Assembly (NCBI GenBank): GCA_964004625.1
Contig: CAXFOB010000033.1
Span: 23,820 to 87,819 of the forward strand
Direction of reading: 5' to 3'
DNA length: 64,000 nt
Source of the DNA: an uncultured Flavobacteriales bacterium
Lineage (GTDB): Bacteria > Bacteroidota > Bacteroidia > Flavobacteriales > BACL11
In this document: positions 11,343 to 56,717 of the stretch, piece by piece
Layout of the letters: each line of letters starts with the position of its first letter
Numbering within the stretch: position 1 is the first letter of the stretch
The notes under the pieces: generated by a model
Told to the model about the DNA's origin: nothing
Seen by the model: only the letters and a program-made list of their open reading frames with translations
The model's database searches: none
Made by a program: the position numbers and the translations under genes

Positions 11343-11365
11343 TTTTGATAACTGATGTAAAAGTG

Positions 11366-11373: not shown

Positions 11374-11388
11374 TAAAAAAATTAGAAA

Positions 11389-11766: not shown

Positions 11767-11770
11767 TATT

Positions 11771-12533: not shown

Positions 12534-13802
12534 CTAAATCATCATACCAGCGGCAACTGTTTCATTTGTTGCTTCATCTACTAAAATAACACTGCCTGTA
12601 TTTCTATTTCTTCTGTAGCTATCAAAGAAAAGAGGTTTTGTAGTACGGATAGAAATTCTACCAATATCATTTAGTCCAATCTCTTTATCTTCTTCATTTC
12701 TATGCAATGTGTTAATATCCATTTTATATTTTACCTCTTTTATAATACATCTTACAGTTTGTGAAGTATGTCGGATAGTATATTTCCCTCTAGGCATCAT
12801 TTTTCGTTCAGTCATCCAGCAGACCATTAAATCAACATCTTGTTCAGTAGTAGGTTGATTGTTTTCTCTTACGATCATATCTCCTCTACTAATGTCAATA
12901 TCATCCTCTAGAGTCATGCAAACAGACATAGGTGAAAATGCTTGTACTATCTCACCATCAAAAGTATCGATAGATTTAATTTTTGAAGTGAATCCTGAAG
13001 GAAGTACTGTGACTTCATCACCAACCTTAAACACACCCCCTGCTATTCTTCCAGCATAACCTCTATAATCAGGATATTGTACAGATTGTGGTCTTATAAC
13101 ATATTGTACTGGAAATCTACAATCTACATGATTATGGTCTGAACCAATATGTATATTTTCCAATAGGTGCATTAAGGTTGAACCATCATACCAATCCATA
13201 TTTTCAGATCTATCAACAACATTATCTCCATTTAAAGCGGAAATTGGAATAAAACGAACATCTTTAATTTCTAATTTTGTTGAAAAATTCTCAAATTCCT
13301 TTTTAATTTTGTCAAAAACTTCTTTACTGTGGTCAACTAAATCCATTTTATTTATACAAACTGCAATATGTGGAATTTGTAAAAGAGATGCAATAAACGC
13401 ATGTCTTTTAGTTTGTTCAATTACTCCATGTCTTGCATCTACTAATAAAAGGGCTAAGTTTGCAGTTGATGCTCCTGTAACCATATTCCTAGTATACTGA
13501 ATATGCCCAGGCGTATCTGCTATAATAAATTTTCTTTTGGGGGTTGCAAAGTATCTATATGCAACATCAATGGTAATTCCTTGTTCTCTTTCCGATCTTA
13601 ATCCATCCGTAAGTAGAGCTAGGTTAATCCCCTCTTCTCCTCTTTGCTTACTTGTTTCTTCAAGTATATCCATTTGATCTTCAAAAATCGCTTTACTATC
13701 ATAAAGTAATCTTCCAATCAAAGTACTTTTACCGTCATCTACACTTCCAGCAGTAGTGAAGCGCAATAACTCCATATTTAAATATCCTTTTGTTTCGTTC
13801 AT
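12534..13802 (-). CDS. cysN: Sulfate adenylyltransferase subunit 1
   Basis: LLRFTTAGSVDDGKSTLIGRLL, EREQGITIDVAY, DTPGH, NKMD. Start moved to ATG 13802 (MNETKG) because the track start overlaps cysD. Confidence 0.95.
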   Translation of the reverse strand: MNETKGYLNMELLRFTTAGSVDDGKSTLIGRLLYDSKAIFEDQMDILEETSKQRGEEGINLALLTDGLRSEREQGITIDVAYRYFATPKRKFIIADTPGHIQYTRNMVTGASTANLALLLVDARHGVIEQTKRHAFIASLLQIPHIAVCINKMDLVDHSKEVFDKIKKEFENFSTKLEIKDVRFIPISALNGDNVVDRSENMDWYDGSTLMHLLENIHIGSDHNHVDCRFPVQYVIRPQSVQYPDYRGYAGRIAGGVFKVGDEVTVLPSGFTSKIKSIDTFDGEIVQAFSPMSVCMTLEDDIDISRGDMIVRENNQPTTEQDVDLMVCWMTERKMMPRGKYTIRHTSQTVRCIIKEVKYKMDINTLHRNEEDKEIGLNDIGRISIRTTKPLFFDSYRRNRNTGSVILVDEATNETVAAGMMI

Positions 13803-13815
13803 AGTTTTATCTTTT

Positions 13816-14721
13816 TTAAAAGTACCCCTCTTTCTTCCTATCTTCCATAGCAGCTTCTGATCTTTTATCGTCTGCTCTTCCTCCTCTTTCAGTAATTCTA
13901 GTAGATGCAACTTCTTCAACAATCTCTTCTAAGTCATTTGCCTCTGATTCTGCAACACCCGTACAGGTCATATCTCCAATAGTTCTACATCTTACTGTTT
14001 TTTCTTCCCATTTTTCCCCATCTTTTAGAGTAATATAATCGCATTTAGATAATAGAACCCCATCACGATTTACAACTTCTCTTTGGTGAGAAAAATATAA
14101 TGAAGGTAATGATATTTTTTCGTATAAAATATATTGCCATACATCCATCTCAGTCCAATTTGAAATCGGGAATACTCTAAAGTGTTCTCCTAGTTTCTTT
14201 CTTCCATTAAATAGATTCCAAAGTTCTGGTCTTTGATTTTTTGGGTCCCATTGTCCAAACTCATCCCTGTGTGAGAAAAACCTTTCTTTAGCTCTTGCTT
14301 TTTCTTCATCTCTTCTAGCTCCTCCCATTGCACAGTCATATTTTCCTTCTTCTAGACCCTCTAAAAGTGTAACAGTTTGAAGTCCATTTCTAGAAGGGTT
14401 TGGGCCAGTTTCTTCTACAGCAGTTCCTTTATCAATAGAATCTTGAACATATTTTACGATTAAAGTTTCTCCGGTTTCTTTCATTAATCTATCTCTAAAT
14501 TCAATAGTTTCTGGGAAGTTATGACCAGTATCTACATGCATTAAAGGAAATGGGATTTTACCAGGATAAAATGCCTTTCTGGCAAGATGAAACATAATAA
14601 TAGAATCTTTTCCTCCAGAAAATAACATTACAGGCTTTTCAAATTGTGCAGCTACCTCTCTTAGGATAAAAATTGCTTCTGATTCTAATTCTTTTAAGTG
14701 TGTTAAATTATACGAACTCAT
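13816..14721 (-). CDS. cysD: Sulfate adenylyltransferase subunit 2
   Basis: LFSGGKDS, HVDTG, GGARRDEEKARAKER, MEDRKKEGYF. Confidence 0.97.
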   Translation of the reverse strand: MSSYNLTHLKELESEAIFILREVAAQFEKPVMLFSGGKDSIIMFHLARKAFYPGKIPFPLMHVDTGHNFPETIEFRDRLMKETGETLIVKYVQDSIDKGTAVEETGPNPSRNGLQTVTLLEGLEEGKYDCAMGGARRDEEKARAKERFFSHRDEFGQWDPKNQRPELWNLFNGRKKLGEHFRVFPISNWTEMDVWQYILYEKISLPSLYFSHQREVVNRDGVLLSKCDYITLKDGEKWEEKTVRCRTIGDMTCTGVAESEANDLEEIVEEVASTRITERGGRADDKRSEAAMEDRKKEGYF

Positions 14722-14723
14722 TT

Positions 14724-15332
14724 TTATTTGTTTTTAATAATCGGTAAAATATAATCTAAAACTTTTTGCACCGATTCATCTATTGAAAGTTTAGATGTAT
14801 TGATTTCTATTTCAGGATTTTCTGGAGCTTCAAATGGAGAACTTATTCCAGTAAAATCTTTTATTTCTCCTTTTCTAGCTTTCTTATAAAGACCTTTCAC
14901 ATCTCTTTCTTCACAAGTTTCCAATGATGCATTAATATAAACTTCAATAAAGTTTTCTACTCCAACTATTTCTTTAGCAATGTTTCTGATTTCAATTGTT
15001 GGACTTACAAAACAATTTAATGTTACAATGCCACAATTTAAAAACAACCTACTTACTTCAGCAATTCTTCTGATATTCTCTGCTCTATCTTCACAAGAAA
15101 AAGTGAGATTATTACTTATTCCTACTCTAATATTATCCCCATCTAGAAGCTGATTTAATATTCCATTATTATGCAGGTATCTCTCGACACCTTTAGCAAT
15201 AGTTGTTTTACCAGATCCAGAAAGTCCTGTCATCCAAATCACTTTTGATTTTTGTTGTAGTAAAGATTCTTTATCTTCTCTTTGAAGAATATCATCAAAA
15301 ATGGTAAATATATTTTCTTTTGACTCTTTCAT
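14724..15332 (-). CDS. cysC: Adenylyl-sulfate (APS) kinase
   Basis: WMTGLSGSGKTT P-loop, LDGDNIR, RDVKGLYKKARKGEIKDFTGISSPFE. Confidence 0.97.
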   Translation of the reverse strand: MKESKENIFTIFDDILQREDKESLLQQKSKVIWMTGLSGSGKTTIAKGVERYLHNNGILNQLLDGDNIRVGISNNLTFSCEDRAENIRRIAEVSRLFLNCGIVTLNCFVSPTIEIRNIAKEIVGVENFIEVYINASLETCEERDVKGLYKKARKGEIKDFTGISSPFEAPENPEIEINTSKLSIDESVQKVLDYILPIIKNK

Positions 15333-15344
15333 AATTTAAGTGGG

Positions 15345-15407
15345 CAAATCTAACAAAAATATCTGAATCTAAAATTGTGAAAAATATGTATAAAATTAGT
15401 AGGTTTG
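15345..15407. promoter_or_regulatory. Divergent promoter pair for cysCDN (minus, TAGATTTG 15352-15345) and deoC-cysQ-wzx... (plus, TAGGTTTG 15400-15407)
   Basis: Two back-to-back TAnnTTTG matches in the short intergenic region. Confidence 0.55.
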
Positions 15408-15424
15408 TGAGAAATTCTTATTAT

Positions 15425-16132
15425 ATGAACATTGAAGATTATTTAGATTCAACTTATCTGAAAACTGCAGAACAAGCAATGATCTCTGAAGAAGAAAATA
15501 GGAATAATATTAAGGGTTTGATTAATGAGGCGATTAAACATAATTTTAAGTTAGTTATGATTCGTCCAAAGTATATTACTCTAGCTAAGGAATTGATAAA
15601 AAAATCTAAATCAAATGTTTTAGTTGGTACTGTAGTAGATTTCCCTCTTGGAGATTCTCCAACAGAGGATAAAATTAAAGAAGCCAAAGATGTAATAGAA
15701 TTAGGAGTGGATGATGTCGACTATGTTGCGGATTATAATATTTTTAAACAAAAAAGATTTGACAAATTTGATTTAGATATTTTAGAAGGAACAAGGTTAG
15801 GAGTAATTCATAATAAGACCGTAAAATGGATAATTGAAACAGGAGCTCTTTCTGTAGAAGAGATAAAAAGTATAACAAAACGAATTTCTCAAATTGTTTC
15901 AAAAGAGTTTTCTGATTATGTAGAAAAGGTCTTTATCAAAACTTCAACAGGTTATTATGGAGGCTTTGGAGCTACAATAAAAGATGTTAAAGTAATGAGA
16001 TCTGTATCTGGAGATTTACCTATAAAAGCTTCTGGTGGGGTGTCTAATTTTTCTGATTTTTCACAAATGATTGCGGCGGGAGCTACTAGAATTGGGACGT
16101 CAAAAGCATTAAAAATATTTAAAAAAGAATAA
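15425..16132 (+). CDS. deoC: Deoxyribose-phosphate aldolase (DeoC family)
   Basis: GTVVDFPLG, KWIIET, FIKTSTG, IKASGGV, AGATRIGTS. Start moved to ATG 15425, downstream of the promoter motif. Confidence 0.9.
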   Translation: MNIEDYLDSTYLKTAEQAMISEEENRNNIKGLINEAIKHNFKLVMIRPKYITLAKELIKKSKSNVLVGTVVDFPLGDSPTEDKIKEAKDVIELGVDDVDYVADYNIFKQKRFDKFDLDILEGTRLGVIHNKTVKWIIETGALSVEEIKSITKRISQIVSKEFSDYVEKVFIKTSTGYYGGFGATIKDVKVMRSVSGDLPIKASGGVSNFSDFSQMIAAGATRIGTSKALKIFKKE

Positions 16133-16150
16133 AAGAAAAACAAGTAAAAA

Positions 16151-16945
16151 ATGCGTTTTAACGAATTATTAAAAACCGCAATAAATGCCTCTATTGAGGG
16201 GGGGCATGCTATAATGAAGGTGTATGCTTCAGAATTTTCTGTAGAGCATAAAGATGACCAGTCACCTTTAACCTTAGCAGATAAAAATTGTAATGAGGTA
16301 ATCGAGAGTTTTCTTAAAAACACCCATATTCCTATATTAAGTGAAGAAGGAGCTAAGATTCCTTATTTAGAAAGAAAAGATTGGGAATATTCTTGGCTAA
16401 TAGACCCATTAGACGGAACAAAAGAGTTTATTAAAAGAAATGGGGAATTTACAGTAAATATTGCATTAATACATAAAGGGCATCCTGTTATGGGAGTTAT
16501 TTATGTTCCTGTAAAAGAAGATCTTTATTTTGCACTTGATGGAATGGGGTCTTATAAGAAATCCTTTTGTGTTGATACTATAGATGATTTGGAAAACCTT
16601 ATATCTTTGTCTTGTTCTTTACCAATTAAATCAGAAAGAGATTCCTATATTGTTGTTGGGTCAAGATCTCATATGACAAAAGAAACAGAAATGTTTTTTG
16701 AGAAAAAGAAACAAGAACATGGTAATGTTGAGGTGATGGCCGTTGGTTCTTCATTAAAACTTTGTATGGTTGCAGAAGGGAAAGCAGATTCTTATCCTAG
16801 ATATGCTCCTACTATGGAATGGGATACTGCAGCTGGAGATGCGATTTGTAGAATGGCAGGATTTCGGGTTTTACAATACAATTCTGATAAACCTGTCGAA
16901 TACAATAAAGAAGATTTATTAAATCCTTGGTTCTTGGTAAAATAA
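16151..16945 (+). CDS. cysQ: 3'(2'),5'-bisphosphate nucleotidase (PAP phosphatase)
   Basis: KDDQSPLTLAD, ILSEE, WLIDPLDGTKEF, GSSLK, TMEWDTAAG. Confidence 0.95.
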   Translation: MRFNELLKTAINASIEGGHAIMKVYASEFSVEHKDDQSPLTLADKNCNEVIESFLKNTHIPILSEEGAKIPYLERKDWEYSWLIDPLDGTKEFIKRNGEFTVNIALIHKGHPVMGVIYVPVKEDLYFALDGMGSYKKSFCVDTIDDLENLISLSCSLPIKSERDSYIVVGSRSHMTKETEMFFEKKKQEHGNVEVMAVGSSLKLCMVAEGKADSYPRYAPTMEWDTAAGDAICRMAGFRVLQYNSDKPVEYNKEDLLNPWFLVK

Positions 16946-16949
16946 ATCA

Positions 16950-18278
16950 ATGAAAGAAAAGTTAAAATCATCATTAAAAGATAAAGATTTTTCGGAACTT
17001 TTAAGAGGAAGTGGACTTTCCTTTTTTTTAAGGTCTGGAGGATTAGCAGCAGGATATCTTTTAACGTTAATAATTGCACATTTATTTGGTGCAAAAGGAT
17101 TAGGAGATTACGTTCTTGCAATTACCGTTTTACGACTTTTTACTCTTTTAGCAAAACTAGGATTAGATACAACGTCCATTAGATTTATCGCTTCTTTTGC
17201 AAGCAAAAACAAATGGACTAGTATTTTTAACTTTAGAAGAAAAATAGTTTTTGTTTTATTGTTTAGCTCTCTTACTTTTTCTGCTTTAATGTATTTTTTA
17301 GCACATCCTATTGCAGATTTAATTAATGCAAAAGTAGAGTACATAAAGTTAAATGCATTTTTTGTTTTACCTATGTCCTTTTTTATGTTGCATTATCAGA
17401 GTTTAAGAGGTCTTAAGCGAATTGCTGAATTTTCTTTTTTCTATAGAATGTCGCAAGCTTTATTTACAGTAATATCTATTGTAGTTATATATCAATTTTT
17501 TCAAGATGAAGAGGTTCCTGTATATGCTTATTTGGTTTCTTTACTATTGGTATCATTTTTATCTTTCCTTACTTTTAAATACTGGTTAAATAACAAATCT
17601 AGTGGAATAGAAAGTGCAGAACTTGAAGTTTTAAAATATTCTCAGATATTAAAAATTTCTATTCCATTAATGTTTGCACAATCAGTTCAGTTCATTATGG
17701 CATGGACAGATAAACTTATGTTAGGATCTATGACTACTATAGAGGATGTTGGTATTTATCACACTGCTTTTAAATTATCAATGTTTGCGGCTGTTGCATT
17801 GATGTCGGTAAATAGTATTGCTTCTCCAAAATTTGCTGAAATGTTTGCTAAAAATGATATGGAAGGATTAAAAAAGGTGGTACATCAGTCTACAAAAATG
17901 ATATTTTGGTCTTCCGTTCCCTTTGTTGTAGTATTTTTTATTTTTCCACACTTTTTATTAGGTCTTTTCGGAGAAGAGTTTAAAATTGGTGTAACTGCAT
18001 TTATCTTCTTATCTTGCGGAAGATTAATAAGCTCTCTATCAGGTTCGGTAGGAAATATCTTACAAATGACAGGTAATCAAAATATTTATGCTAGTATATT
18101 ACTTATAGGAGCACTTTTAAATATTGTTCTCAATCTTATTTTAATTCCTTTATACGGAATAAATGGAGCGGCACTAGCATCAATGTCAAGTTTAATTGTT
18201 TGGAATTTAAGTATGGTACTTGTTGTAAAAAAGAAATTCGGTTTTTATACTTTTTATATACCTTTTATAAATAAATGA
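16950..18278 (+). CDS. wzx: Polysaccharide flippase (Wzx family)
   Basis: Highly hydrophobic multi-TM protein. TDKLMLG...VGIY and NIVLNLILIPLYGINGAALA motifs. Confidence 0.88.
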   Translation: MKEKLKSSLKDKDFSELLRGSGLSFFLRSGGLAAGYLLTLIIAHLFGAKGLGDYVLAITVLRLFTLLAKLGLDTTSIRFIASFASKNKWTSIFNFRRKIVFVLLFSSLTFSALMYFLAHPIADLINAKVEYIKLNAFFVLPMSFFMLHYQSLRGLKRIAEFSFFYRMSQALFTVISIVVIYQFFQDEEVPVYAYLVSLLLVSFLSFLTFKYWLNNKSSGIESAELEVLKYSQILKISIPLMFAQSVQFIMAWTDKLMLGSMTTIEDVGIYHTAFKLSMFAAVALMSVNSIASPKFAEMFAKNDMEGLKKVVHQSTKMIFWSSVPFVVVFFIFPHFLLGLFGEEFKIGVTAFIFLSCGRLISSLSGSVGNILQMTGNQNIYASILLIGALLNIVLNLILIPLYGINGAALASMSSLIVWNLSMVLVVKKKFGFYTFYIPFINK

Positions 18279-19183
18279 AGAAAAGACTACCAAATTTTTT
18301 GATTGTTGGAGCTGCGAAAAGCGGCACCTCTTCTTTGCATAATTATTTAAACCAACATAAGGATATTTTTATGCCTTCATATAATAATAAGGGAATGAAG
18401 GTAAAAGAACCAAGGTTCCTCATAAAAGATTTGGTAGAACATAGATTGCATAATGGAATTTGGTCTTGGGAAGAGTATCAATCTTTGTTTGATTCTGTCA
18501 AGAAAGAAAAAGCGATTGGAGAGTCCACAGTTCTTTATTTGTATTATTATGAGTATGCAATTAATAATATTAAAAAACTCCTAGGGGATGATATAAAGAT
18601 TATTATCATGTTGAGAAGTCCCACTGATAGGGCCTATTCCGCATTTCAACATGTTTCTAGAGGATTTAAAGAGCAACATTCTTTTGAAGAGGCTTTAGAA
18701 ATAGAAGAGGGAAGATTAGATAGAAATCCAGAGTTGACGCCAATGGTTATGTACAAAGAAATGGGGATGTATTCTAAAATGGTACAAGCATATAAAAACG
18801 CATTTGAAAATGTTCATATTATATTATATGAAGATTTTAGAGATAATACCAAAGAAGAAATAATGAAAACATTTACGTTTTTAGAATTAAGTAAAGATGA
18901 AAATATAGATTTTATAACACAACATAATGTTGGAGGTAAAAGGTGGAAGAATAACCACATCAAATATATTTTCATGAATCAAAATCCAATCAAGTCGATA
19001 TTAAAAATTTTAATACCAAACAAAATTAGAGCTTCTTTGAGAAAGAAGCTGGTAAATATCTCAACAAATAAGGTAGAGGAAATGAATGATCAAACTCGAG
19101 AAAAACTAAATAGTATCTTTAAAGAGGATGTTAAGAAATTATCTAAAATAATAAATAGAGATGTAACTCATTGGACTAAATAA
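18275..19183 (+). CDS. PAPS-dependent sulfotransferase 1
   Basis: 5'-PSB loop PNFLIVGAAKSGTSSL, KEP, 3'-PB IIMLRSPTDRAYS. Confidence 0.92.
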   Translation: MKKRLPNFLIVGAAKSGTSSLHNYLNQHKDIFMPSYNNKGMKVKEPRFLIKDLVEHRLHNGIWSWEEYQSLFDSVKKEKAIGESTVLYLYYYEYAINNIKKLLGDDIKIIIMLRSPTDRAYSAFQHVSRGFKEQHSFEEALEIEEGRLDRNPELTPMVMYKEMGMYSKMVQAYKNAFENVHIILYEDFRDNTKEEIMKTFTFLELSKDENIDFITQHNVGGKRWKNNHIKYIFMNQNPIKSILKILIPNKIRASLRKKLVNISTNKVEEMNDQTREKLNSIFKEDVKKLSKIINRDVTHWTK

Positions 19184-20073
19184 TGGCTAAACCAAATTTA
19201 TTAATAGTAGGAGCGGCAAAAAGTGGTACCACGTCTTTGCATAATTATTTAAATCATCATGATGATGTTTTTATGTGTAACCCAAAGGAGCCCCATTTTC
19301 TAATTAATAATGAAATAGGAATAGATAGAATTCCGATAGGAGTTACAAAGCAAGAGGAATATGAGAATTTATTTTTAGAAGGATCAGAATTAAAATACAG
19401 AGGAGAATCTTCTGTTATGTATTTAATGTATCCAGAAATTGTAACAAAAAATATTAAAAAGTATTTAGGAGAGGATACAAAGATTATTATTATGTTGAGA
19501 AATCCTGTTGAGAGAGCCTATTCTGGTTACCAACATGTAAAAAGATATAATATGAAAGAGGATTTTACGGATTTTAAAACTGCTTGGGAGGTTTCAGAAG
19601 AAAGGTACTTTATCAATAAAAGTATGACTCCAGCATCACGATATAAGGAGTTAGGTTTGTATTACAAACAGGTGAAATATTTCATGGAAGAGTTTCGGAA
19701 TCTACATATTATTATTTATGAAGATTATAAATCTGACTTTCAGTCTGAAATCAATAAAGTTTTTGATTTTTTAGGCATAGTAAGAATTGATATCAACCCT
19801 GAAGAAAAGCATATGGTAGGAGGTTGGCAGTGGGAAAATGATAGTATTAAGAAACTAATGATACAGAAAAACCCCATTAAATCATTATTTAAATTTCTTC
19901 TTCCTTTTGAATCCTTAAGAAAAAATATTCGTAAGAATATTCAGAAAAGAAACACGATAGTGGTTCCTAGTATTTCTGATGAGGATGAACAAATGTTAAA
20001 GCAGTTCTATTATGAAGATGTAAGAAAGTTATCCAATTTATTAGGTAGGGATTTAAACCATTGGACAAAATGA
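19183..20073 (+). CDS. PAPS-dependent sulfotransferase 2
   Basis: LIVGAAKSGTTSL, KEPHF, IIMLRNPVERAYS. Confidence 0.92.
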   Translation: MAKPNLLIVGAAKSGTTSLHNYLNHHDDVFMCNPKEPHFLINNEIGIDRIPIGVTKQEEYENLFLEGSELKYRGESSVMYLMYPEIVTKNIKKYLGEDTKIIIMLRNPVERAYSGYQHVKRYNMKEDFTDFKTAWEVSEERYFINKSMTPASRYKELGLYYKQVKYFMEEFRNLHIIIYEDYKSDFQSEINKVFDFLGIVRIDINPEEKHMVGGWQWENDSIKKLMIQKNPIKSLFKFLLPFESLRKNIRKNIQKRNTIVVPSISDEDEQMLKQFYYEDVRKLSNLLGRDLNHWTK

Positions 20074-20951
20074 GTTTGCCAAATTTCATATGTTTAGGTG
20101 CAGCTAAAAGTGGAACCACTACTTTGTGTGATATTTTACGTCAACATCCAGAAATTTATATTCCATCTTTTAAAGAACCTCATTTCTTTGATATTCCTGA
20201 AAACTATAAGAATGGAATAGATTGGTATAAAAAGAATTATTATAGAAATGCACTAGCCAAGGTCATTGCTGACTTTACACCTTCTTATTTTTTTGACAAA
20301 GAAGCTCCAAAACGAATTTTTGAATCTTTAGGAGGTAAGGTAAAATTTGTTGTCATTCTTAGAAATCCTGTAGACAGAGCTTATTCTCATTATTTGCATT
20401 CTAAAAGAGATGATCATGAAGATTTAGAATTTAAAGAAGCTATACAGCATGAAAGTTCAAGGCTGAAACAATATGAAGAAAGTGGTGATTATCTATCTTA
20501 TTTAAGACAATCATATGTAAGTCAAGGGTTATACTATGATATGTTAGCAAGATATTTAGAATATTTTTCATTAGATAATTTCCTATTTATCCAATTTGAG
20601 GAAGAATTTATAAAACATCGAGAAGAAACAATTATTAAAATTTTAAATTTTCTTGAAATTAAGAATTTTAATTTGAAAACAGATATAAAAAGTAATCCTG
20701 CAAGTAAAGAAAAATCGAAAACTTTAAAAAGAATAATGAAAAAGAAAGGTTGGTGGAGGAAAATATTGAAGTTTTTAGTTCCTTCAATTCAATTACGACA
20801 AATTATCAGAAATAAGATACAACGAGCCAATATTATAGAAATTAAGGCAGGTAAATTGTCAGATGATTTAAAAAAAGAAATTTACAGAAATTATTTTTCT
20901 GAACAAATTGATTCTTTTAGTAAAATCTCAAATAAAAAAATATCATGGTGA
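20070..20951 (+). CDS. PAPS-dependent sulfotransferase 3
   Basis: PNFICLGAAKSGTTTL, KEPHFFD, DFTPSYF, ILRNPVDRAYSHY. ATG 20070 overlaps the previous stop (ATGA). Confidence 0.92.
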   Translation: MSLPNFICLGAAKSGTTTLCDILRQHPEIYIPSFKEPHFFDIPENYKNGIDWYKKNYYRNALAKVIADFTPSYFFDKEAPKRIFESLGGKVKFVVILRNPVDRAYSHYLHSKRDDHEDLEFKEAIQHESSRLKQYEESGDYLSYLRQSYVSQGLYYDMLARYLEYFSLDNFLFIQFEEEFIKHREETIIKILNFLEIKNFNLKTDIKSNPASKEKSKTLKRIMKKKGWWRKILKFLVPSIQLRQIIRNKIQRANIIEIKAGKLSDDLKKEIYRNYFSEQIDSFSKISNKKISW

Positions 20952-22180: not shown

Positions 22181-22191
22181 AAAAAAGAAAT

Positions 22192-24656: not shown

Positions 24657-24663
24657 ATCTTAA

Positions 24664-25671: not shown

Positions 25672-26532
25672 ATGAAAGTCGGAATTTTTATAGTAGGAAC
25701 TCCAAAAGCAGGAACAACTTCCTTATATCATTATCTAAATGAATTTCCTGAAATTTTAATGAGTTCTGAGAAAGAGCCAGACTATTTTTCAGTTAAAGAG
25801 ATATTGGAGCAGGGATTATACTATGGAGAATCTAAAATTGATTCTTTGATAAAATACAATAATTTATTTTCCAAAAGAGATAAAGAACAATTTTTTGGAG
25901 AGGCCTCTGTATCTTATTTATTTTATCCTGAAGTATCAACAAGGATTAAGGCGTATAATCCAGAATCTAAAATAATTATAATGCTCCGAAACCCTATTGA
26001 AAGAGCATTCTCACATTATTTAATGGATTATAGATTAGGATTAACTTCCAAAAGTTTTGAAGAAGAATTTAAGAATCAGGAAAGTTTAAATTTTCAACAG
26101 TATTTCTTATTAGGAAATTACTATAATCAGGTAAAAAAATATCTAAAAGTATTCGAAACTAAAAATGTTCATATTATATGGTATTCAGACTTTAAACAAA
26201 ATGCCGAAAAGGAATTGCAAAAAGTAATTGATTTTATTGGTTTGAAATCAGATTTTAAAGTTGATTTGAGCAAAATTCATAATAGCTTTAGTATGCCGAG
26301 AAATAATATAATCAGAAAAATCTATTCAGTGGCTTGGCTCAGAAAAATCCTTACTTTTATTTTCCCCGAAACATTAGGAAACTCGATAAAGTCAATATTA
26401 TTTCGTAAAGGAAAAAAACCAAAATTATCTGAAGAAAATAGAAACATATTGTTCAGTTATTACAAGTCAGATATTGAAGATTTAGAACAGTTATTATCCG
26501 TAAATTTAAGTAGATGGAAAAAATTGGATTAG
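25672..26532 (+). CDS. PAPS-dependent sulfotransferase 5
   Basis: FIVGTPKAGTTSLY, KEPDYF, GEASVSY, IIMLRNPIERAFSHY. Confidence 0.92.
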   Translation: MKVGIFIVGTPKAGTTSLYHYLNEFPEILMSSEKEPDYFSVKEILEQGLYYGESKIDSLIKYNNLFSKRDKEQFFGEASVSYLFYPEVSTRIKAYNPESKIIIMLRNPIERAFSHYLMDYRLGLTSKSFEEEFKNQESLNFQQYFLLGNYYNQVKKYLKVFETKNVHIIWYSDFKQNAEKELQKVIDFIGLKSDFKVDLSKIHNSFSMPRNNIIRKIYSVAWLRKILTFIFPETLGNSIKSILFRKGKKPKLSEENRNILFSYYKSDIEDLEQLLSVNLSRWKKLD

Positions 26533-27422
26533 TGACAATAACATATAATTCTGCAGATGTAATTAGAGGTTTTTTGGAGTCTACACTTTCTCAAACATTT
26601 CAAAATTTTGTTATTTATATCATTGATAACAACTCCCAGGACATGACTCTTAAAATTCTGACAGAATATACGGATAATAGAATAAGGTTAGTAAAAAACA
26701 AGAAAAATGTTGGAGTTGCAAAAGCAAATAATCAAGGTATATTATTAGCATTAGAGGATAATTGCAGTCAAGTTCTCATCATTAATAATGATGTGGAATT
26801 TGAAAGACAACTGATTGAAAAAATGCTGCAAGTTCAACAGGATAATAAGTGTTCCTTAGTTGTTCCAAAAATGATGTATTTTGACAATCCTAATTATATT
26901 TGGTATGCTGGAAGTACATTTATTAAAAAGAAGGGATTTCTTCCAGTTCATAATGGGATAAAACAACAAGATATCTCTCAGTTTGATGGAGTTTATCCAG
27001 TAGAATACGCTCCCACATGTTGTTTATTGGTAAAAAAAGAAGTATTTCTGGATGTTGGTATGATGGATGAAAAATATTTTGTATATTTTGATGACACTGA
27101 TTTTTCTTACAGAGTTTTAAAAGATGGAAGACATAAATTATTCTTTTTTTCTGATACTAAATTTTATCACAAAGTAGGGAGTTTAACAAAGTCGGTAGAA
27201 AAAGAAAATAAACAAGAATATAGAGGAGATTTTTTTATAAAGCAAAATACAAGAAATCATATATATTTTCTTAAAAAAATTGGAGGTTTTTATGCTTATC
27301 TTTTTATATTATTCTTATTCTTTAAGAATAATATAAGATTTATAATAAATCCTAATTTTAGAAAAAATCTACGTACTTGGAAGTTAATAAATAAATCGTA
27401 CTTTGAAGGGTTGATAATGTAA
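26514..27422 (+). CDS. Glycosyltransferase family 2
   Basis: VTITYNS, IIDNNSQD, NVGVAKANNQG, INNDV, MDEKYFVYFDDTD. Confidence 0.9.
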   Translation: MEKIGLVTITYNSADVIRGFLESTLSQTFQNFVIYIIDNNSQDMTLKILTEYTDNRIRLVKNKKNVGVAKANNQGILLALEDNCSQVLIINNDVEFERQLIEKMLQVQQDNKCSLVVPKMMYFDNPNYIWYAGSTFIKKKGFLPVHNGIKQQDISQFDGVYPVEYAPTCCLLVKKEVFLDVGMMDEKYFVYFDDTDFSYRVLKDGRHKLFFFSDTKFYHKVGSLTKSVEKENKQEYRGDFFIKQNTRNHIYFLKKIGGFYAYLFILFLFFKNNIRFIINPNFRKNLRTWKLINKSYFEGLIM

Positions 27423-27423
27423 A

Positions 27424-28572
27424 ATGAAAGAAAAAATTGCGATAATTGATTCACTAGGAGCTCATGGGAGTTCATTTCATTTCTATGTTTTTGGACAAGC
27501 AAAAGGATTGTCAAAATCTGGATTAGATGTGTCTATTTACACAAATAATGTTACCAACAACCCTCATTATGAGAGAGTAAAATTTTATCAGTATTACAAG
27601 AATATTTTTGCGTCAAATTCAAAATTAATTTCTGGTTTCAGATATATTTGTGGATCACTTTTTTCCTTATTTCACGCAAGATTTTCTGGAGTTAAAATCT
27701 GTAACTACCACTTGTTTCATGTAAATGTTTTGGTATTGTTTGATTTCTTACTTACAAAAATGTTAATGATGAAAGTTGTGTATACTATTCATGATGTTAT
27801 TAGTTTTGAGAATGCAAACTCTTCACAAAAGATAAGTAATTTTATATATAATAATGCGGATAAAATTTTAACCCATAATAATTTTTCGAAAGAAATTTTC
27901 ACCAAAAAATATAATAAAGTATTAACGGAAATTGATATTGTTCCACATGGAAATTATCTCCCATTTTTAAATATAAAAACAGATAAACTAAAATCAAGAG
28001 CACGATTACGAATCCCGAAAGATAAAAAAGTATTGTTATTTTTTGGGATTATAAAACAAGTAAAAGGATTAGAAGTGTTACTCAATGCTTTGAAAGATGT
28101 AATATCTGTAAATCAGGATATAATTTTGGTAATAGCTGGTAGAGTTTGGAAGAATGATTTTTCAATTTATCAGAAAATAATTGATGATAATAATCTATCA
28201 GATTATTGCATAATTCATAATAGATGGATTCTACATGAAGAGGTGAATGATTATTATGCTTCTGCGGACTTGGTTGTTCTTCCTTATAAAAGAATTTATC
28301 AGAGCGGAGTGCTTTTAATGAGCATGAGTTATGAAAGAGCAGTATTAGTTTCAGATTTACCTCCACTAACAGAGGTTGTACAGGATATGAAAACAGGTTT
28401 TGTTTTTGAGTCAGAAAATCCCAAGTCACTTTCAAAGAAATTAAACATAATCTTTGCAGACACAAATAAATTAGAAGAAGTTCGTGTTAATGGTTTTAAT
28501 TATATAAAGTCCAAATATAATTGGTTAGAAATAGGAAAAGAAACGAAAAAAAGTTATCAATCTATTTTGTAG
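27424..28572 (+). CDS. Glycosyltransferase family 4
   Basis: VYTIHD, VPHG, LFFGIIKQVKGLE, DLVVLPY...QSGV. Confidence 0.9.
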   Translation: MKEKIAIIDSLGAHGSSFHFYVFGQAKGLSKSGLDVSIYTNNVTNNPHYERVKFYQYYKNIFASNSKLISGFRYICGSLFSLFHARFSGVKICNYHLFHVNVLVLFDFLLTKMLMMKVVYTIHDVISFENANSSQKISNFIYNNADKILTHNNFSKEIFTKKYNKVLTEIDIVPHGNYLPFLNIKTDKLKSRARLRIPKDKKVLLFFGIIKQVKGLEVLLNALKDVISVNQDIILVIAGRVWKNDFSIYQKIIDDNNLSDYCIIHNRWILHEEVNDYYASADLVVLPYKRIYQSGVLLMSMSYERAVLVSDLPPLTEVVQDMKTGFVFESENPKSLSKKLNIIFADTNKLEEVRVNGFNYIKSKYNWLEIGKETKKSYQSIL

Positions 28573-28597
28573 TATATTAGCACATAATAAACAAAAT

Positions 28598-29170
28598 ATG
28601 AAAAGTAGAATTGAAAATTTCATACAAGCATCTATAAAAGTAAAACAGAAAATGCTTTCCTCAGAAGATATTTTAGATTGCATTGAATTAATTGTGTCTA
28701 AATCTGTTATAGCTTTTAATAATGATAAAAAGATGCTTTTGTGTGGAAATGGCGGTAGTGCTTCTGATGCTCAACACATTGCGGCTGAATTGAGTGGTAG
28801 ATTTTATAAAGATAGAAAGGCACTTTTTGCAGAAGCTTTACATGTAAATTCTTCATTTGTTACAGCAGTAGCAAATGATTATGGATATGATAATATTTAT
28901 TCTAGGATGGTTGAAGCCGCGGGAAAAAATGGAGATATTCTCATTGGGATTTCCACGTCTGGAAACTCTAGAAATGTGGTAAATGCTATTAAAAAAGCAA
29001 AGGAAATAGGAATGATTACAATTGGGTTCACAGGTGCTAAATTTGGAGAAATGGATCAATTATGTGATATAATTATTAAAGTTCCTACTTCTGACGTCCC
29101 AAGAATTCAGGAATCCCATATTTTAATAGGACATATTATTTGTCAACTTATTGAAGAGAAATTGTTTTAA
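28598..29170 (+). CDS. gmhA: Sedoheptulose-7-phosphate isomerase
   Basis: CGNGGSASDAQHIAAEL, ANDYG, GISTSGNS, RIQESH. Confidence 0.93.
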   Translation: MKSRIENFIQASIKVKQKMLSSEDILDCIELIVSKSVIAFNNDKKMLLCGNGGSASDAQHIAAELSGRFYKDRKALFAEALHVNSSFVTAVANDYGYDNIYSRMVEAAGKNGDILIGISTSGNSRNVVNAIKKAKEIGMITIGFTGAKFGEMDQLCDIIIKVPTSDVPRIQESHILIGHIICQLIEEKLF

Positions 29171-29670
29171 TGAATTTGAAAGAATATACGACACTTTTTT
29201 TAGATAGAGATGGAGTAATTAATTATAAAATTGATGGATATGTTCAGTATTTTTCTGAATTCAATTTTATTGAAGGAGTATTGGAATCGATCTCAGATTT
29301 AACGGATTATTTTGATAGGATAATAATAGTTACAAATCAGCAGGGAATTGGGAAACAATTAATGACTGAGAAGGAACTTCTTGAGTTGCACTCAGAAATG
29401 TTAAAGGAAATAGAAAAAAATGGAGGAAAGATTGATAAAATCTATTATTGTCCACATTTAGCAACTTTAGATTGTAATTGTAGAAAACCAGAACCCGGTA
29501 TGCTAAAAAAAGCAAAGCAAGATTTTAAAGAGATAATATTTGAAAAATCAATATTATTAGGAGATTCAGATACAGATATTGAAGCTGCAGAAAAGGTAGG
29601 TGTACAATCTGTTAAAGTATGTTCAAAATACACCTTGACACACTGGACTAGGGATTTCTTATTAAATTAG
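29170..29670 (+). CDS. gmhB: Heptose 1,7-bisphosphate phosphatase (HAD-IIIA)
   Basis: [22 protein letters not shown]...CNCRKP.PGM, GDSDTD. Confidence 0.88.
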
Positions 29671-29701
29671 TATCTTTACTGCCCCAAAAAGTAGAACTAA
29701 A

Positions 29702-30736
29702 ATGAAAAAGGCAATAATCACAGGTATAACCGGACAGGATGGAGCCTATTTAGCAGAGCTTTTGTTAAATAAAGGTTATAAGGTGTATGGTGCTTATAGA
29801 AGAACAAGTTCTCAGAATTTCTGGAGAATTGACTATTTAGGAATCAGAAATAATCCTAATCTGAGGCTAGTTGAGCATGACTTAATTGATGCAGCTAGCA
29901 CTATCAGAATGGTGTCTGAAATTAGACCTGATGAAATATATAATCTTGCTGCACAAAGTTTTGTACATGTATCTTTTGACCAGCCTTTAGCTACAAGTAT
30001 GATTACTGGTATTGGAGTAACTCATTTACTAGAAGCTATCAGAATTGTAAATAAGGATATAAAATTTTACCAAGCTTCAACCTCAGAGTTGTATGGTAAA
30101 GTTCAGGAAGTTCCTCAGAAAGAAACAACCCCATTTTATCCAAGGAGTCCGTATGGTGTTTCAAAATTATATGCACATTGGATGGTGACAAATTATAGAG
30201 AGTCTTACGACATGTTTGCATGTAGCGGGATTTTGTTTAATCATGAATCTCCATTAAGAGGAATGGAATTTGTAACTAGAAAGATATCAGATAGTGTAGC
30301 TAAAATTTCTGAGGGTTTACAAGATTGTTTAGAACTTGGCAACTTAGATGCGAGTCGGGATTGGGGTTATGCTCCCGAGTACGTAGATGGAATGTATAAA
30401 ATGCTACAACATGAGAAACCAGATTCCTTTGTACTTGCAACTAGCAAAGCGTATACTGTTCGTCAGTTTGTAGAATTTGCATTTAATGTTGGTGGGATTG
30501 ATATAATATGGGAAGGAAGTGGAATATCTGAAATAGGAATTAATTCAAAGACTGGAAAAACAATTATTAAAGTAAATAACGATTTTTTCAGATTATCTGA
30601 GGTTGATGCTTTGATAGGTGATTACTCAAAAGCTGAGAAAGAATTGGGGTGGGTTCCTATGACTAATATTAAGAATCTGTGTCAGATTATGGTAGAATCA
30701 GATTTACAAGCTTTAAAAACTAATCTAAAAAGCTAA
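29702..30736 (+). CDS. gmd: GDP-mannose 4,6-dehydratase
   Basis: [51 protein letters not shown]. Confidence 0.95.
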
Positions 30737-30738
30737 TC

Positions 30739-31794
30739 ATGTTTGATTTACTGTTTAACATCGCTTTTCCCTTAGTAACATCTTTTATACTTACCTTTCT
30801 AGCCATTCCAAAGATCATTCATTTTTCAAGAAAGAGTAGGTTGTTTGCTAGCGTAGGTAAAAGAAACTCTCATATAGGGGAGATACCTATCTTTGGTGGA
30901 ATAGCAATATTTGCTGGTTTGTTATTTTCTTTAATTTTATGGGCGGAGTTAGAAAGTATACAATTTATACTTGTTAGTTTAATAATAGTATTTTTTATTG
31001 GAGTTTTAGATGATTTACTTTCTTTATCTCCTATGAGAAAATTAGCAGGTCAGATTTCTTCAATTTTAGTAATTATGTTTTTAGCAGAATTAAAAATAGA
31101 TAGTTTTCACGGTCTATTTGGAATTACTATTATTCCAGAATGGGTTTCAATATTATTCACAGTATTTGTATTTGTAGTTGTTACAAATGCATATAATTTA
31201 ATTGATGGAATTGATGGACTCGCGGGTGGGGTAGGAACTATTGCTGCTACTTTCTTTGGAGTAGTTTTTTTACTGAATCATGACATTCAGATGGCTATTT
31301 TATCTTTTACATTAGTAGGCTCCTTATTAGCATTTTTAAAATATAATTTTAATCCAGCTAGTATCTTTATGGGAGATACAGGTTCACTATTAATTGGTTT
31401 AATTTTATCAGTTTTATCAATAAGATTAATAAATACAGGAGTCAATATACCTCATGAAAAATTATATATTAATAAAGGTCCGTTTATTGTTATTGCTACC
31501 TTAGCAGTTCCTTTATACGATACCTTTAGGGTGTTTTGTATTCGTATTTTGTCCGGATATCATCCATTAAGACCGGATAGAAATCATATACATCATGCAT
31601 TACTAGATTTAGGTTTTGGACATAAAAAGGCTACACTAATCTTATATGTTTTTAGCCTATTTATCATGTTCCTATCGTACTTTATGATTAATATGAGTCT
31701 TGGCCTTTCTATATTTCTTTTGTCTATAATTGTATTAGGATTAATGGCTATTCCTTTTGTGATATTACAGATAAAAAAGAAAAGTGGTGCATAA
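30739..31794 (+). CDS. Undecaprenyl-phosphate GlcNAc-1-phosphate transferase (WecA/MraY family)
   Basis: PIFGGIAI, GVLDD, NAYNLIDGIDGLA, IFMGDTGS, DRNHIHH. Confidence 0.92.
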   Translation: MFDLLFNIAFPLVTSFILTFLAIPKIIHFSRKSRLFASVGKRNSHIGEIPIFGGIAIFAGLLFSLILWAELESIQFILVSLIIVFFIGVLDDLLSLSPMRKLAGQISSILVIMFLAELKIDSFHGLFGITIIPEWVSILFTVFVFVVVTNAYNLIDGIDGLAGGVGTIAATFFGVVFLLNHDIQMAILSFTLVGSLLAFLKYNFNPASIFMGDTGSLLIGLILSVLSIRLINTGVNIPHEKLYINKGPFIVIATLAVPLYDTFRVFCIRILSGYHPLRPDRNHIHHALLDLGFGHKKATLILYVFSLFIMFLSYFMINMSLGLSIFLLSIIVLGLMAIPFVILQIKKKSGA

Positions 31795-33358
31795 ATTTAA
31801 ACTTCTTTTTCTTTTTGAATTTTGTGTTATAATTGTTTATGCACAACAATCTAATTCTACTTTTTCTAGGAGTTTTAATTTATTTTCAGATAACGAACTA
31901 CATGTGATAGAAACAGATTATCATACAAGTATAAAACCTTTTTTACTGTCTAATTTGGATTCTACTGTAAAAAAAGAGAAAGGAACTTGGTTGTTTAGAA
32001 AATGGAATAAAGAACATTTTATCCAGTTAGAAAATGAGGAGTATAGCTTGGTAGTTAACCCAATTTTAAATATAATGATAGCTAAAGAAATGGGATCTGA
32101 AAAAACTGTTTGGAATAATACAAGAGGAATAATTGCAGATGGAAAGTTAGGAAGTAGATTCACTTTTTATTCATCTTTTTTAGAAAATCAATCTGTATTT
32201 CCTTCTTATTTAATGAATACAATTGTAGGGAAATCAGCTTGGATTGTACCAGGACAAGGAGAATCTCGTTGGTCTCTTGATTCTCTACTTGATTATACAA
32301 TGGCTTCTGGTCATTTTACATATAATCTCTCTAAATTTTCAGACATACAATTTGGTACAGGAAAGAATTTTATTGGAGATGGGTACCGATCTATGATATT
32401 ATCAGACAATGCTTTTAATTATCCTTTTCTAAGAGTTCAGACTGCAGCAGGTATTTTTCAATATACAAATCTATATATGGAACATATGGATTTAATATCT
32501 AACCCCTCAGAAGAATTTGCATATGATAAAAAATACATGACATTACACCACTTAAGTACTAATATTACAGACAGATTAAATGTTGGGATTTTTGAGTCTA
32601 TTATTTGGGAACATACTAGAACCCCAGAATTGTCGGGTTTTGATATTTCTTATTTAAATCCAATTATTTTTTTAAGACCAGTTGAGTTCTCTTTAAATTC
32701 ATCTGATAATGCATTAATGGGATTAAACTATAAATTTAAAACTACAAATAATTCTCATATTTATGGACAGTTTTTAATAGATGAACTTTCTTTACCTTCC
32801 TTAAATGCAGGAGATAATTGGTGGGGTAAAAAATATGCTTATCAAATGGGCGGAAAGTATTTTGATGCATTTGGATTAGATAATTTAATTTTTCAAATAG
32901 AATATAACTTTGCCAGACCATATACTTACTCTCATTATAATACTTCTCAAAATTATGGACATTATTTTCAGTCTTTAGCACATCCTTTAGGAGCTAATTT
33001 TAATGAGATTTTATTTTTTACAGATTATAAATGTAAAAAATGGGAGATTCATTCTCAATTAATGACAGCGAGATACGGAGGTAAAGTAAAAGGAGATTCT
33101 ACAAGCTTCGGAAATGATATTTTTATGTCAAATTCTGATAGACCTTCAGATTATAGTATAGAGATGTTTCAAGGAAATGACACGAAATTATTTTATTCCA
33201 AAACTACACTCTCGTATTTATTTAACCCAAAAACAAATCTTAAGATCGAGACTGGCTATGTATATAGAATGTTAGAGGACGATTATGGAAAATATAAAAC
33301 AAATTTTATTTTCTTTGCGTTTAAATCAGATTTATTCAACCGATATTACGATTTTTAA
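31784..33358 (+). CDS. Outer-membrane protein, RemB-like / capsule assembly Wzi-like
   Basis: Signal peptide. GKNFIGDGYRS..LSD, FD.SYLNPIIFLRPVE, RPYTYSH, LAHPLGANF motifs. Aromatic C-terminus YYDF. Confidence 0.6.
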   Translation: MVHKFKLLFLFEFCVIIVYAQQSNSTFSRSFNLFSDNELHVIETDYHTSIKPFLLSNLDSTVKKEKGTWLFRKWNKEHFIQLENEEYSLVVNPILNIMIAKEMGSEKTVWNNTRGIIADGKLGSRFTFYSSFLENQSVFPSYLMNTIVGKSAWIVPGQGESRWSLDSLLDYTMASGHFTYNLSKFSDIQFGTGKNFIGDGYRSMILSDNAFNYPFLRVQTAAGIFQYTNLYMEHMDLISNPSEEFAYDKKYMTLHHLSTNITDRLNVGIFESIIWEHTRTPELSGFDISYLNPIIFLRPVEFSLNSSDNALMGLNYKFKTTNNSHIYGQFLIDELSLPSLNAGDNWWGKKYAYQMGGKYFDAFGLDNLIFQIEYNFARPYTYSHYNTSQNYGHYFQSLAHPLGANFNEILFFTDYKCKKWEIHSQLMTARYGGKVKGDSTSFGNDIFMSNSDRPSDYSIEMFQGNDTKLFYSKTTLSYLFNPKTNLKIETGYVYRMLEDDYGKYKTNFIFFAFKSDLFNRYYDF

Positions 33359-56708: not shown

Positions 56709-56717
56709 AATACAATT

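Follow-up and report, generated by a model that had tools for sequence, protein, structure and literature searches.

What does an uncultured marine bacterium build from a locus that sets genes for PAPS supply beside five sulfotransferase genes, and does it have a counterpart among known systems? The locus lies in a stretch of 64,000 nt of Flavobacteriales DNA, referred to here as the window.

The locus and its core cassette

All the genes named in an earlier, sequence-only reading of the window are present, in the order and on the strands that it gave. The cysN, cysD and cysC genes lie on the minus strand, and the genes from deoC through the outer-membrane gene follow on the plus strand, as listed here.

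12475..12513, minus: terminator-like hairpin with an 18-bp stem, between the convergent tonB and cysN genes (consensus scan; 2 found vs. 1.3 by chance)
12534..13802, minus: cysN, ATP sulfurylase GTPase subunit (TIGR02034 above cut-off; 422-aa relatives)
13816..14721, minus: cysD, ATP sulfurylase catalytic subunit (TIGR02039 above cut-off)
14724..15332, minus: cysC, APS kinase (TIGR00455 above cut-off)
15377..16132, plus: deoC, deoxyribose-phosphate aldolase, passenger (TIGR00126; retained where the cassette is lost)
16151..16945, plus: cysQ, PAP phosphatase (TIGR01331 above cut-off)
16950..18278, plus: wzx flippase, which opens the core cassette (PF01943/PF01554)
18275..19183, plus: ST1, PAPS-dependent sulfotransferase (PF00685; PDB 3rnl, E 5e-44; own clade)
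19183..20073, plus: ST2, sulfotransferase, mutually exclusive with a hexapeptide acetyltransferase among relatives (Pfam; own clade; locus counts)
20061..20951, plus: ST3, sulfotransferase (Pfam; own clade; PAPS motifs)
20945..22180, plus: Wzy-like polymerase (PF04932)
22192..23319, plus: WbiB/Tle-like epimerase, predicted to make dTDP-6-deoxy-L-talose (JGI homologue names; residue spacing; insertion)
23316..24656, plus: clan GH-A glycoside hydrolase (GH) with a GH51/GH79-like fold, likely periplasmic (predicted fold; E161 and E294 invariant)
24664..25671, plus: ST4, sulfotransferase that belongs to another subtype, CurM/TPST-like (Pfam; own clade)
25672..26532, plus: ST5, sulfotransferase (Pfam; own clade; PAPS motifs)
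26514..27422, plus: GT2, candidate 6-deoxytalose transferase (TIGR01556, E 1e-24, below cut-off; invariant in the cassette)
27424..28572, plus: GT4 glycosyltransferase, which closes the core cassette (PF00534)
28598..29670, plus: gmhA and gmhB, passengers that likely supply ADP-heptose for LPS (NCBIfam; retained where the cassette is lost)
29702..30736, plus: gmd, GDP-mannose 4,6-dehydratase (TIGR01472; missing from most relatives' loci)
30739..31794, plus: WecA-like initiating transferase, candidate initiator (PF00953; TIGR02380 below cut-off)
31784..33358, plus: outer-membrane protein, Wzi-like by language-model features alone, passenger (retained by G016 and G465)

From deoC to the outer-membrane gene, the intergenic gaps range from -19 to +31 nt, and the genes are spaced as in one operon. 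The longest cysN reading frame (12534-13922) shares 107 nt with cysD; a start at ATG 13802 is likelier, giving a predicted protein of 422 aa, the length seen in two relatives. A sigma-70 promoter scan gave 18 sites vs. 18.7 expected by chance, and neither Rfam matches nor tRNAs were found in the window. RNA contigs from 4 runs in 3 studies cover 27, 24, 17 and 15 of 30 bins, respectively, a coverage that has no silent-stretch control and hence is not proof of transcription.

Two genomes, G016 (closed, 99%) and G465, lack exactly the segment from wzx to GT4 and retain the PAPS, heptose and porin-like genes around it. Because precisely this segment is cleanly absent, we define it as the core cassette (16950-28572). 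The deoC, gmhA, gmhB, gmd and outer-membrane genes are passengers of the locus; hldA-like, hldC and GT9 genes are located elsewhere in the genome. A GDP-6-deoxyheptose route through gmhAB and gmd was considered and rejected: the sole GHMP kinase identified resembles IspE, an ADP-heptose set exists and gmhAB persist where the cassette is lost. The language-model features of the outer-membrane protein include a neighbouring cluster with PF14052 on 15% of its members, and a PDB sequence search with this protein gave zero matches. RemB is a candidate name for it.

The cassette Wzy was found in 52 of 68 family genomes (19/21 near-complete ones) and in 16/16 genera, and Wzy also occupies the same chromosomal site in two sister families. 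The family consists of small-genome uncultured marine Flavobacteriales, which carry the cassette at one fixed chromosomal site. Epimerase, GT2 and wzy occur in 49/49 complete loci, as does wzx, the latter by definition of the count. A synteny check recovered the same gene order in dozens of genomes, and the arrangement is therefore not due to chance. At the level of the phylum, wzy matches numbered 2/400, both in loci without sulfotransferase matches. A matching cassette lies beside wza-wzc in Parafilimonas terrae DSM 28286, a cultured soil bacterium and type strain, in the order wza-wzc-wzx-ST-wzy-ST-ST-epi-ST-GT2-ST-GH-GT4-GT4. G016 does without the cassette.

PAPS supply and sulfotransferases

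CysDN and CysC together make PAPS, and CysQ removes PAP. Sulfite reductase (PF01077) was found in none of 61 family genomes (0/21 near-complete), so the PAPS made here is likely used for sulfation, and we reject cysteine synthesis as the role of the cys genes. The gene content supports the earlier proposal of a Wzx/Wzy-type pathway, supplied with PAPS, that makes a surface glycan with multiple sulfates. A phmmer search for a second ORF with a PAPS-reductase domain found none. We consider the PAPS genes to be shared, since genome G000 encodes nine more sulfotransferase-like genes, mostly within three further glycan loci. A small candidate ATP sulfurylase replaces cysDN in 16/68 relatives, and ATP sulfurylase or this candidate substitute is present in 21/21 near-complete genomes. 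The predicted structure of the small nucleotidyltransferase is poor (pLDDT 49), and nothing published on it was found among CC-licensed PMC and bioRxiv papers (supplements excluded). The site offers a clean in-situ swap of CysDN for this candidate.

All five sulfotransferases score above the PF00685 and PF13469 cut-offs. Each has intact, conserved 5'-PSB and 3'-PB PAPS motifs, none has a signal peptide, and each forms its own position-specific clade in a quick tree. Complete loci (n=49) encode 2 to 5 sulfotransferases, most of them four and twelve of them two; ST1 or ST2 may be missing from a locus. Among 57 loci, ST2 is present in 36, an acetyltransferase in 19, neither in 2 and both in 0, with corresponding counts of 31, 5, 1 and 0 in 37 metagenome loci. 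The state changes label 6 times across the GT2 tree. The likely explanation is that an O-acetyltransferase takes over the position of ST2 in these relatives.

The predicted repeat unit and its export

The backbone had been called glycosaminoglycan (GAG)-like, a description that we do not retain, because the sole invariant sugar enzyme matches the dTDP-L-rhamnose 4-epimerases WbiB (Burkholderia thailandensis) and Tle (Mycobacterium abscessus), which points to 6-deoxy-L-talose; a GAG synthase is also absent. The WbiB/Tle label is based on automatic names and residue spacing rather than on direct alignment to WbiB. Among the matches listed, 10/120 epimerase homologues bear the JGI name dTDP-L-rhamnose 4-epimerase. 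The five functional residues are spaced alike (S126, Y186, K190, N215 and R254 here vs. S121, Y181, K185, N210 and R249 in Tle, a constant offset of +5), and an insertion of about 38 residues is common to all three enzymes (a gap at 134-166 relative to solved epimerases, with its Tle counterpart at 128-165), according to excerpts of PMC11549994. With moderate confidence, we predict that the enzyme converts dTDP-L-rhamnose to dTDP-6-deoxy-L-talose; rmlA, B, C and D candidates were found in G000. In the same excerpts, WbiB and Tle supply O-antigen or glycopeptidolipid, unlike the sulfated glycan predicted here. A close epimerase also lies beside 7/11 distant wzy homologues, whose loci have no sulfotransferases. 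An E. coli blastn search with the epimerase gene, which sought a tie to known O-antigens, gave zero matches, and a plasmid tblastn search returned only homologues of unannotated function.

The hydrolase has a sub-threshold Pfam match and zero matches in a PDB sequence search, with a confident clan GH-A fold (model pLDDT 92.6), a TIM barrel in which E161 and E294, invariant in 26 sequences, follow strands 4 and 7. At 14% identity, this fold falls between GH51 (Z 28.6) and GH79 (Z 25.1, rmsd 3.7, 352 aligned). Its nearness to GH79 heparanase and glucuronidases would suit a truly GAG-like chain of alternating hexosamine and uronic acid with N- and O-sulfates, as would the weak likeness of ST1 to the heparan N-sulfotransferase domain (NDST1, E 4e-5), the HexNAc-1-P that WecA transfers, and the UDP-sugar dehydrogenase gene that comes first in the Parafilimonas locus, with another elsewhere in G000. 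We nevertheless consider such a chain highly improbable: the invariant epimerase leads to a 6-deoxyhexose, the cassette has no N-deacetylase, the hydrolase scores higher with GH51 than with GH79, and wecA is not in every carrier. Moreover, GT2 consists of one 302-aa domain whose matches are weak and generic, not a two-domain chondroitin/heparosan or hyaluronan synthase, and its match to chondroitin synthase spans 72 residues only (E 9e-7). A uronic acid somewhere in the repeat is possible.

A repeat of three sugars, with more than one sulfate per sugar, had been deduced from one initiator, two glycosyltransferases and five sulfotransferases. The two glycosyltransferases stand as invariant, the best NCBIfam match of GT2 being a rhamnosyltransferase (below cut-off). 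The initiator does not: wecA was not found in carriers G014 (100% complete), G461 and G035, and cassette-less G465 retains it, which makes both the initiator and the repeat length insecure. Alternative PF02397 initiators occur in 53/68 family genomes. The count of three sugars is further weakened by a third glycosyltransferase at the Parafilimonas locus, which has a homologue elsewhere in G000, and the step from sulfotransferase number to density by Vibrio KMM 8419, whose locus has three sulfotransferases but whose capsule carries a single sulfate per disaccharide (PMC11641403, in excerpt). We give roughly even odds to a longer repeat or partly redundant sulfotransferases, leading to moderate sulfation of at most one sulfate per sugar; the dispensability of ST1 or ST2 and the prevalence of loci with four or two sulfotransferases are consistent with this. 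Against it, the sulfotransferase clades are position-specific and of old origin, no glycosyltransferase but GT2 and GT4 is invariant and these two are lost along with the cassette, and synechan obeys a rule of one enzyme, one sulfate (PMC8205485, in excerpt). This alternative concerns density alone and is compatible with the pathway proposed below.

Wzx was assigned by a PF01943 match above cut-off. The PF04932 family spans polymerases and ligases alike, and the wza-wzc context in Parafilimonas favours a polymerase over a ligase. The marine locus itself has no wza or wzc; G000 has a stand-alone wza-wzc pair. A full-length stand-alone wza orthologue occurs in 55/68 genomes and is missing from G016 and G465, a co-loss with the cassette that amounts to two genomes of one genus. 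In G469 (96%), wzy is present and no Wza of any kind was found. The sulfated repeat could instead be an LPS O-chain or an anionic anchor like the A-LPS of Porphyromonas, polymerised with the help of a conserved long Wza-like/Wzz pair and then ligated onto lipid A-core, where it might anchor type IX cargo at the cell surface. A-LPS anchors cargo. It is reported to be an anionic polymer linked to lipid A (PMC3684754). The marine locus without wza and wzc, the LPS heptose genes within it, the ligases in PF04932 and the long Wza-like protein adjoining a Wzz-like gene on C8 of G000 would all fit, and an envelope role would suit the family-wide conservation. We think this unlikely, given that wza-wzc lie in cis in Parafilimonas, that both cassette-less genomes lack the short wza yet keep the long Wza-like gene, and that G016 still has sprA without the cassette.

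The explanation that we consider likely is that wzx to GT4 builds a short lipid-linked repeat of three to four sugars, predicted to include 6-deoxy-L-talose and to be sulfated at several fixed positions, which is exported as capsule or slime. CysDN and CysC would make the PAPS and CysQ clear the PAP, as their family assignments and established functions indicate. RmlABCD, encoded elsewhere, would provide dTDP-L-rhamnose, from which the epimerase may well produce dTDP-6-deoxy-L-talose. The repeat would be assembled on undecaprenyl-PP by an initiator (WecA or a different one), by GT4 and GT2 and possibly by a further glycosyltransferase in trans, and the sulfotransferases would act on it at the cytoplasmic face, one position each. 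Wzx would then flip the repeat, Wzy polymerise it and the stand-alone Wza-Wzc pair export the chain. The hydrolase, dispensable in some lineages, may trim or clear periplasmic polymer.

Relation to known systems

A bolder reading, which we offer tentatively and hold to be doubtful, is that this abundant, streamlined ocean family shares a 'common antigen' throughout: a repeat of three or four sugars including 6-deoxytalose, with as many as five regiospecific sulfates, which would exceed in density all bacterial glycans characterised so far, its surface charge tuned by sulfotransferase/acetyltransferase swaps at fixed slots. If so, the product would resemble fucoidan or ulvan more closely than heparin, and these bacteria would be a standing seawater source of heavily sulfated polysaccharide. 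Enterobacterial common antigen is likewise a Wzx/Wzy surface glycan conserved through a whole bacterial family; it is unsulfated and near-invariant, whereas the set of decorations differs among the loci here, and loss of the cassette occurs.

The predicted sulfated coat is kept by bacteria whose genomes measure 1.2 to 2.1 Mb and which are unable to assimilate sulfate; this implies strong selection; phage or grazer evasion, a non-stick surface or metal binding are our guesses at its cause. Such a coat would also imply a bacterial share in marine sulfated glycans. The acceptor is known for few bacterial polysaccharide sulfotransferases (excerpts of PMC11641403 and PMC7356697). The locus provides six orthologous groups of them that are predicted to share a backbone, together with natural variants, by gene gain or loss and by exchange of sulfate for acetyl, through which enzymes can be assigned to positions, and with a type strain at hand for tests.

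The sequence-only reading had put the locus forward as a candidate for an undescribed system. This was too strong, in that the general design is published for synechan and for Vibrio and Cobetia capsules; the identical gene set was not found in the literature, and no paper on this locus was found among CC-licensed PMC and bioRxiv papers (supplements excluded). The putative sulfated GAG cluster of Pontiella sulfatireligans is also marine, with a GAG-type sulfotransferase homologue among glycosyltransferases and a sulfated exopolymer detected; unlike the locus here, it has one sulfotransferase, eight glycosyltransferases and mainly N-sulfation (PMC7356697, in excerpt). Vibrio sp. KMM 8419 and Cobetia marina KMM 1449 also combine cysDNC and sulfotransferases in a marine glycan locus, the latter with cysQ as here, and their sulfated sugar, L-rhamnose, is a 6-deoxyhexose, like the sugar class predicted here (excerpts of PMC11641403 and PMC11766843, respectively). 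They differ in their ABC-transporter export, their strain-variable clusters of 70-80 genes and their one sulfate per disaccharide (same excerpts), and the Vibrio genomes are described as lacking Wzy (PMC11641403, in excerpt); no Kps ABC transporter was found among the 21 locus genes scanned. By gene content, the locus would work like the synechan (xss) system of Synechocystis PCC 6803, a Wzx/Wzy-dependent pathway with sulfotransferases in the cluster and an OPX gene elsewhere (PMC8205485, in excerpt). The synechan cluster, on a plasmid with its own regulators, has two sulfotransferases and eight glycosyltransferases, and its product two sulfates per eight sugars (same excerpt); here, five sulfotransferases accompany two invariant glycosyltransferases in a chromosomal locus with adjacent PAPS genes, conserved family-wide, and the product is predicted to be far denser in sulfate than synechan.

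Limits and gene content of the locus

The sequence-only reading had listed 21 genes for the locus, and all were found as stated in the source genome (G000), a 1.64-Mb assembly of 42 contigs that is 99.8% complete. The deoC gene and all genes 3′ of it abut or overlap. GC content is 26-28% over the stretch from wzx to GT4 vs. about 31% around it, a lowering that is usual in glycan genes. Two relatives, G016 (one contig, 99% complete) and G465, carry the order cysN cysD cysC deoC cysQ gmhA gmhB (wecA) omp tsaB at this site, the cysN of G465 lying past the contig end. Since the genes from wzx to GT4 are missing from the site in both while the flanks are kept, we take the following as the functional cassette:

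16950-28572, plus strand: wzx, sulfotransferases ST1-ST3, wzy, epimerase, hydrolase, ST4-ST5, GT2, GT4

The flanking gmhA and gmhB are the sole copies in G000; the rest of an ADP-heptose route is encoded elsewhere in the genome by genes for an hldA-like kinase (below cut-off) and a GT9 transferase and by two hldC genes. A few sister-family loci have gmd-fcl in place of gmhA and gmhB, and others lack them without a replacement; gmd lies 3′ of gmhB in few loci only. Scattered relatives (L030, L032-L035, L037, L039, L052) have a divergent deoC and two aldehyde-dehydrogenase-like genes in the cysC-cysQ interval instead of deoC. Genus g13 differs in that its cysCDN and a homologue of wecA now lie in another glycan locus, to which they have moved (G018:C1:258000-264000, G036:C2:28900-34200), the cassette itself still lying 3′ of sprA-gcvH-tonB. 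Two other regions of the window hold:

4179-12457: type IX translocon gene (presumably sprA, from sequence and context), gcvH and tonB, beside the locus here and in most relatives
52294-61450, minus strand: kynurenine pathway cluster (tryptophan dioxygenase, kynureninase, flavin monooxygenase, cyclase, amidohydrolase, aldehyde dehydrogenase)

Elsewhere in G000, the block radA, hldC, panC, glmS occurs in two diverged copies (C22:8920-17650 and C34:2296-11326; 47-72% identity), which suggests that one contig comes from a related organism.

Conservation of the cassette and exchange of decoration genes

Wzy profile matches were found in 52 of the 68 family genomes, in 19 of the 21 near-complete ones and in all 16 genera. 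Of the two near-complete genomes without a match, G016 represents a true loss, and in G464 the locus is interrupted by a contig end. Elsewhere in the phylum Wzy was matched in 2/400 genomes, with no sulfotransferase match in the 35-40 kb examined near either. A GTDB scan gave 79 loci: 67 marine (cassette or part of it), which probably overlap our family genomes so that the two sets of counts are not independent, one in Parafilimonas terrae and 11 distant wzy loci with no sulfotransferase match. Where a record with this wzy bears a name, it is nearly always a MAG or single-cell genome of marine Flavobacteriales or Bacteroidota. In Pedobacter, Flavobacterium, Sediminibacterium and Methylotenera records (L136, L138-L142, L147), distant wzy homologues lie beside a close epimerase homologue and acetyltransferases, without sulfotransferase matches.

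The cultured carrier, P. terrae DSM 28286, encodes a UDP-sugar dehydrogenase, wza, wzc, wzx, five sulfotransferases, wzy, epimerase, GT2, GT4 and hydrolase. Identities to the window are 33% for wzy, 56% for the epimerase, 46% for GT2, 32% for GT4 and 23% for the hydrolase (inverted); four sulfotransferases match ST3, ST5, ST1 and ST4 (34-40%) and the fifth is divergent. A separate contig of this genome encodes the APS kinase and a Sat-like protein.

In 49 loci the whole wzx-GT4 stretch is present; all of these contain wzy, epimerase and GT2, and 36 contain the hydrolase; their sulfotransferases number two (12 loci), three (3), four (26) or five (8). ST1-ST5 share pairwise identities of 27-45% or less, and in a quick tree of 139 rows the sulfotransferases group by gene position (SH-aLRT at least 97 per clade, 85 for ST1), with one divergent ST1-labelled row and two from unrelated loci outside the clades and four rows forming a sixth group. 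The 5′-PSB and 3′-PB motifs are conserved among orthologues; for the ST4 3′-PB, the pattern used missed 19/24 rows, yet found the motif in the window's ST4. None of ST1-ST5 has an N-terminal hydrophobic stretch, so sulfation is likely cytoplasmic, preceding flipping.

The wzx-wzy interval of 57 loci holds ST2 in 36, a hexapeptide acetyltransferase in 19, neither in 2 and both in none; the 37 of 80 metagenome loci with a complete interval divide into 31, 5 and one with neither. On a GT2 tree (32 rows) the acetyltransferase label requires 6 changes, of which strong branches force at least 4, so either the swap is recurrent or a segment moves between lineages. In the 3′ part, a sixth sulfotransferase and a second acetyltransferase replace ST4 and ST5 in 7/58 loci, and 16/58 have an inserted MBOAT pair. 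We read the cassette as encoding one constant backbone whose decorations can be exchanged, and infer that acetyl and sulfate occupy one shared position.

Backbone sugar, repeat length and export

The polysaccharide had been called glycosaminoglycan-like, and the fold likeness of ST1 and the hydrolase to heparan-sulfate enzymes would fit such a backbone. The hydrolase model (pLDDT 92.6), in which both glutamates are invariant across homologues, matches GH51 (Z 28.6, rmsd 3.6, 369 aligned) and GH79 heparanase (Z 25.1, rmsd 3.7, 352 aligned). A glycosaminoglycan backbone is nevertheless unlikely. Among the 120 epimerase homologues listed, 10 carry the JGI name dTDP-L-rhamnose 4-epimerase and none another specific name. 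Residues S126, Y186, K190, N215 and R254 correspond, at a constant offset of five, to those tested or named for Tle (PMC11549994), and the Tle-type insertion is present. G000 encodes rmlA, rmlB, rmlC and, just below cut-off, rmlD, and the best family match of GT2 is a rhamnosyltransferase. On these grounds we predict, with moderate confidence, a 6-deoxy-L-talose backbone sugar; a uronic acid may also enter the repeat via the GT4 donor. The hydrolase would clear or trim the polymer, by analogy with PslG-type enzymes.

The proposed three-sugar repeat is a minimum estimate, because wecA is not universal and Parafilimonas has a further transferase, a DUF1972 GT4 directly 3′ of the cassette, just short of the contig end (its G000 homologue is in a different locus). 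The wecA gene occurs in 43/68 genomes, was not found in the wzy carriers G014 (100% complete), G461 and G035, and persists in the cassette-less G465; other initiators occur in 53/68. A full-length stand-alone wza orthologue is, by our count, present in 55/68 genomes and missing in G016, G465, G483 and G484, and also in G469 despite its wzy.

Sulfate supply and comparison with known systems

Searches for a sulfite reductase were negative in G000 and in 60 other family genomes, so PAPS likely serves sulfation only. This supply is shared between the cassette and other loci: a home-made profile (most of the ORFs were in its training set) finds 14 sulfotransferase-like ORFs in G000, those of the cassette included; six outside the cassette exceed Pfam cut-offs. 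The nine further ORFs fall in three glycan loci and two single genes:

C28:22900-45100, glycan locus with its own wza-wzc, a NeuB-like gene and a carbamoyltransferase
C21:13270-22170, glycan locus
C12:19390-29810, glycan locus
C33:126953-127774, single gene
C39:119999-120847, single gene

Of the 68 genomes, 41 encode cysD, 16 a HIGH-motif nucleotidyltransferase of ~155 aa (in one case a weak hit, 34%) and 1 Sat, with no genome having more than one of these; the 10 lacking all three are incomplete, and the 21 near-complete genomes split 14 and 7. The small nucleotidyltransferase gene, absent from the window, occupies the cysDN position adjoining divergent cysC (e.g. L031:16996-17469). Among 53 viral loci, of which some are near-duplicates, 48 have it next to cysC or fused with it (14 fusions) and 27 contain a sulfotransferase match; kinase fusions also occur in cultured phages. 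It resembles NMN adenylyltransferases in sequence and is a candidate ATP sulfurylase replacing cysDN.

By gene content the locus belongs to the sulfated Wzx/Wzy class, with a predicted sulfated product. A literature search of main texts turned up no paper describing these genes as a set; Table S4 of PMC7356697 might hold related enzymes (further comparisons drew on PMC7356697, PMC11549994 and PMC4891872). The cassette would work like the synechan pathway of Synechocystis (PMC8205485), and the Vibrio and Cobetia clusters (PMC11641403, PMC11766843) share with the locus the hallmark of PAPS genes with sulfotransferases. What appears to be new is the definition of the unit by its deletion, the predicted 6-deoxytalose, the exchange between sulfate and acetyl, and a carrier in culture.
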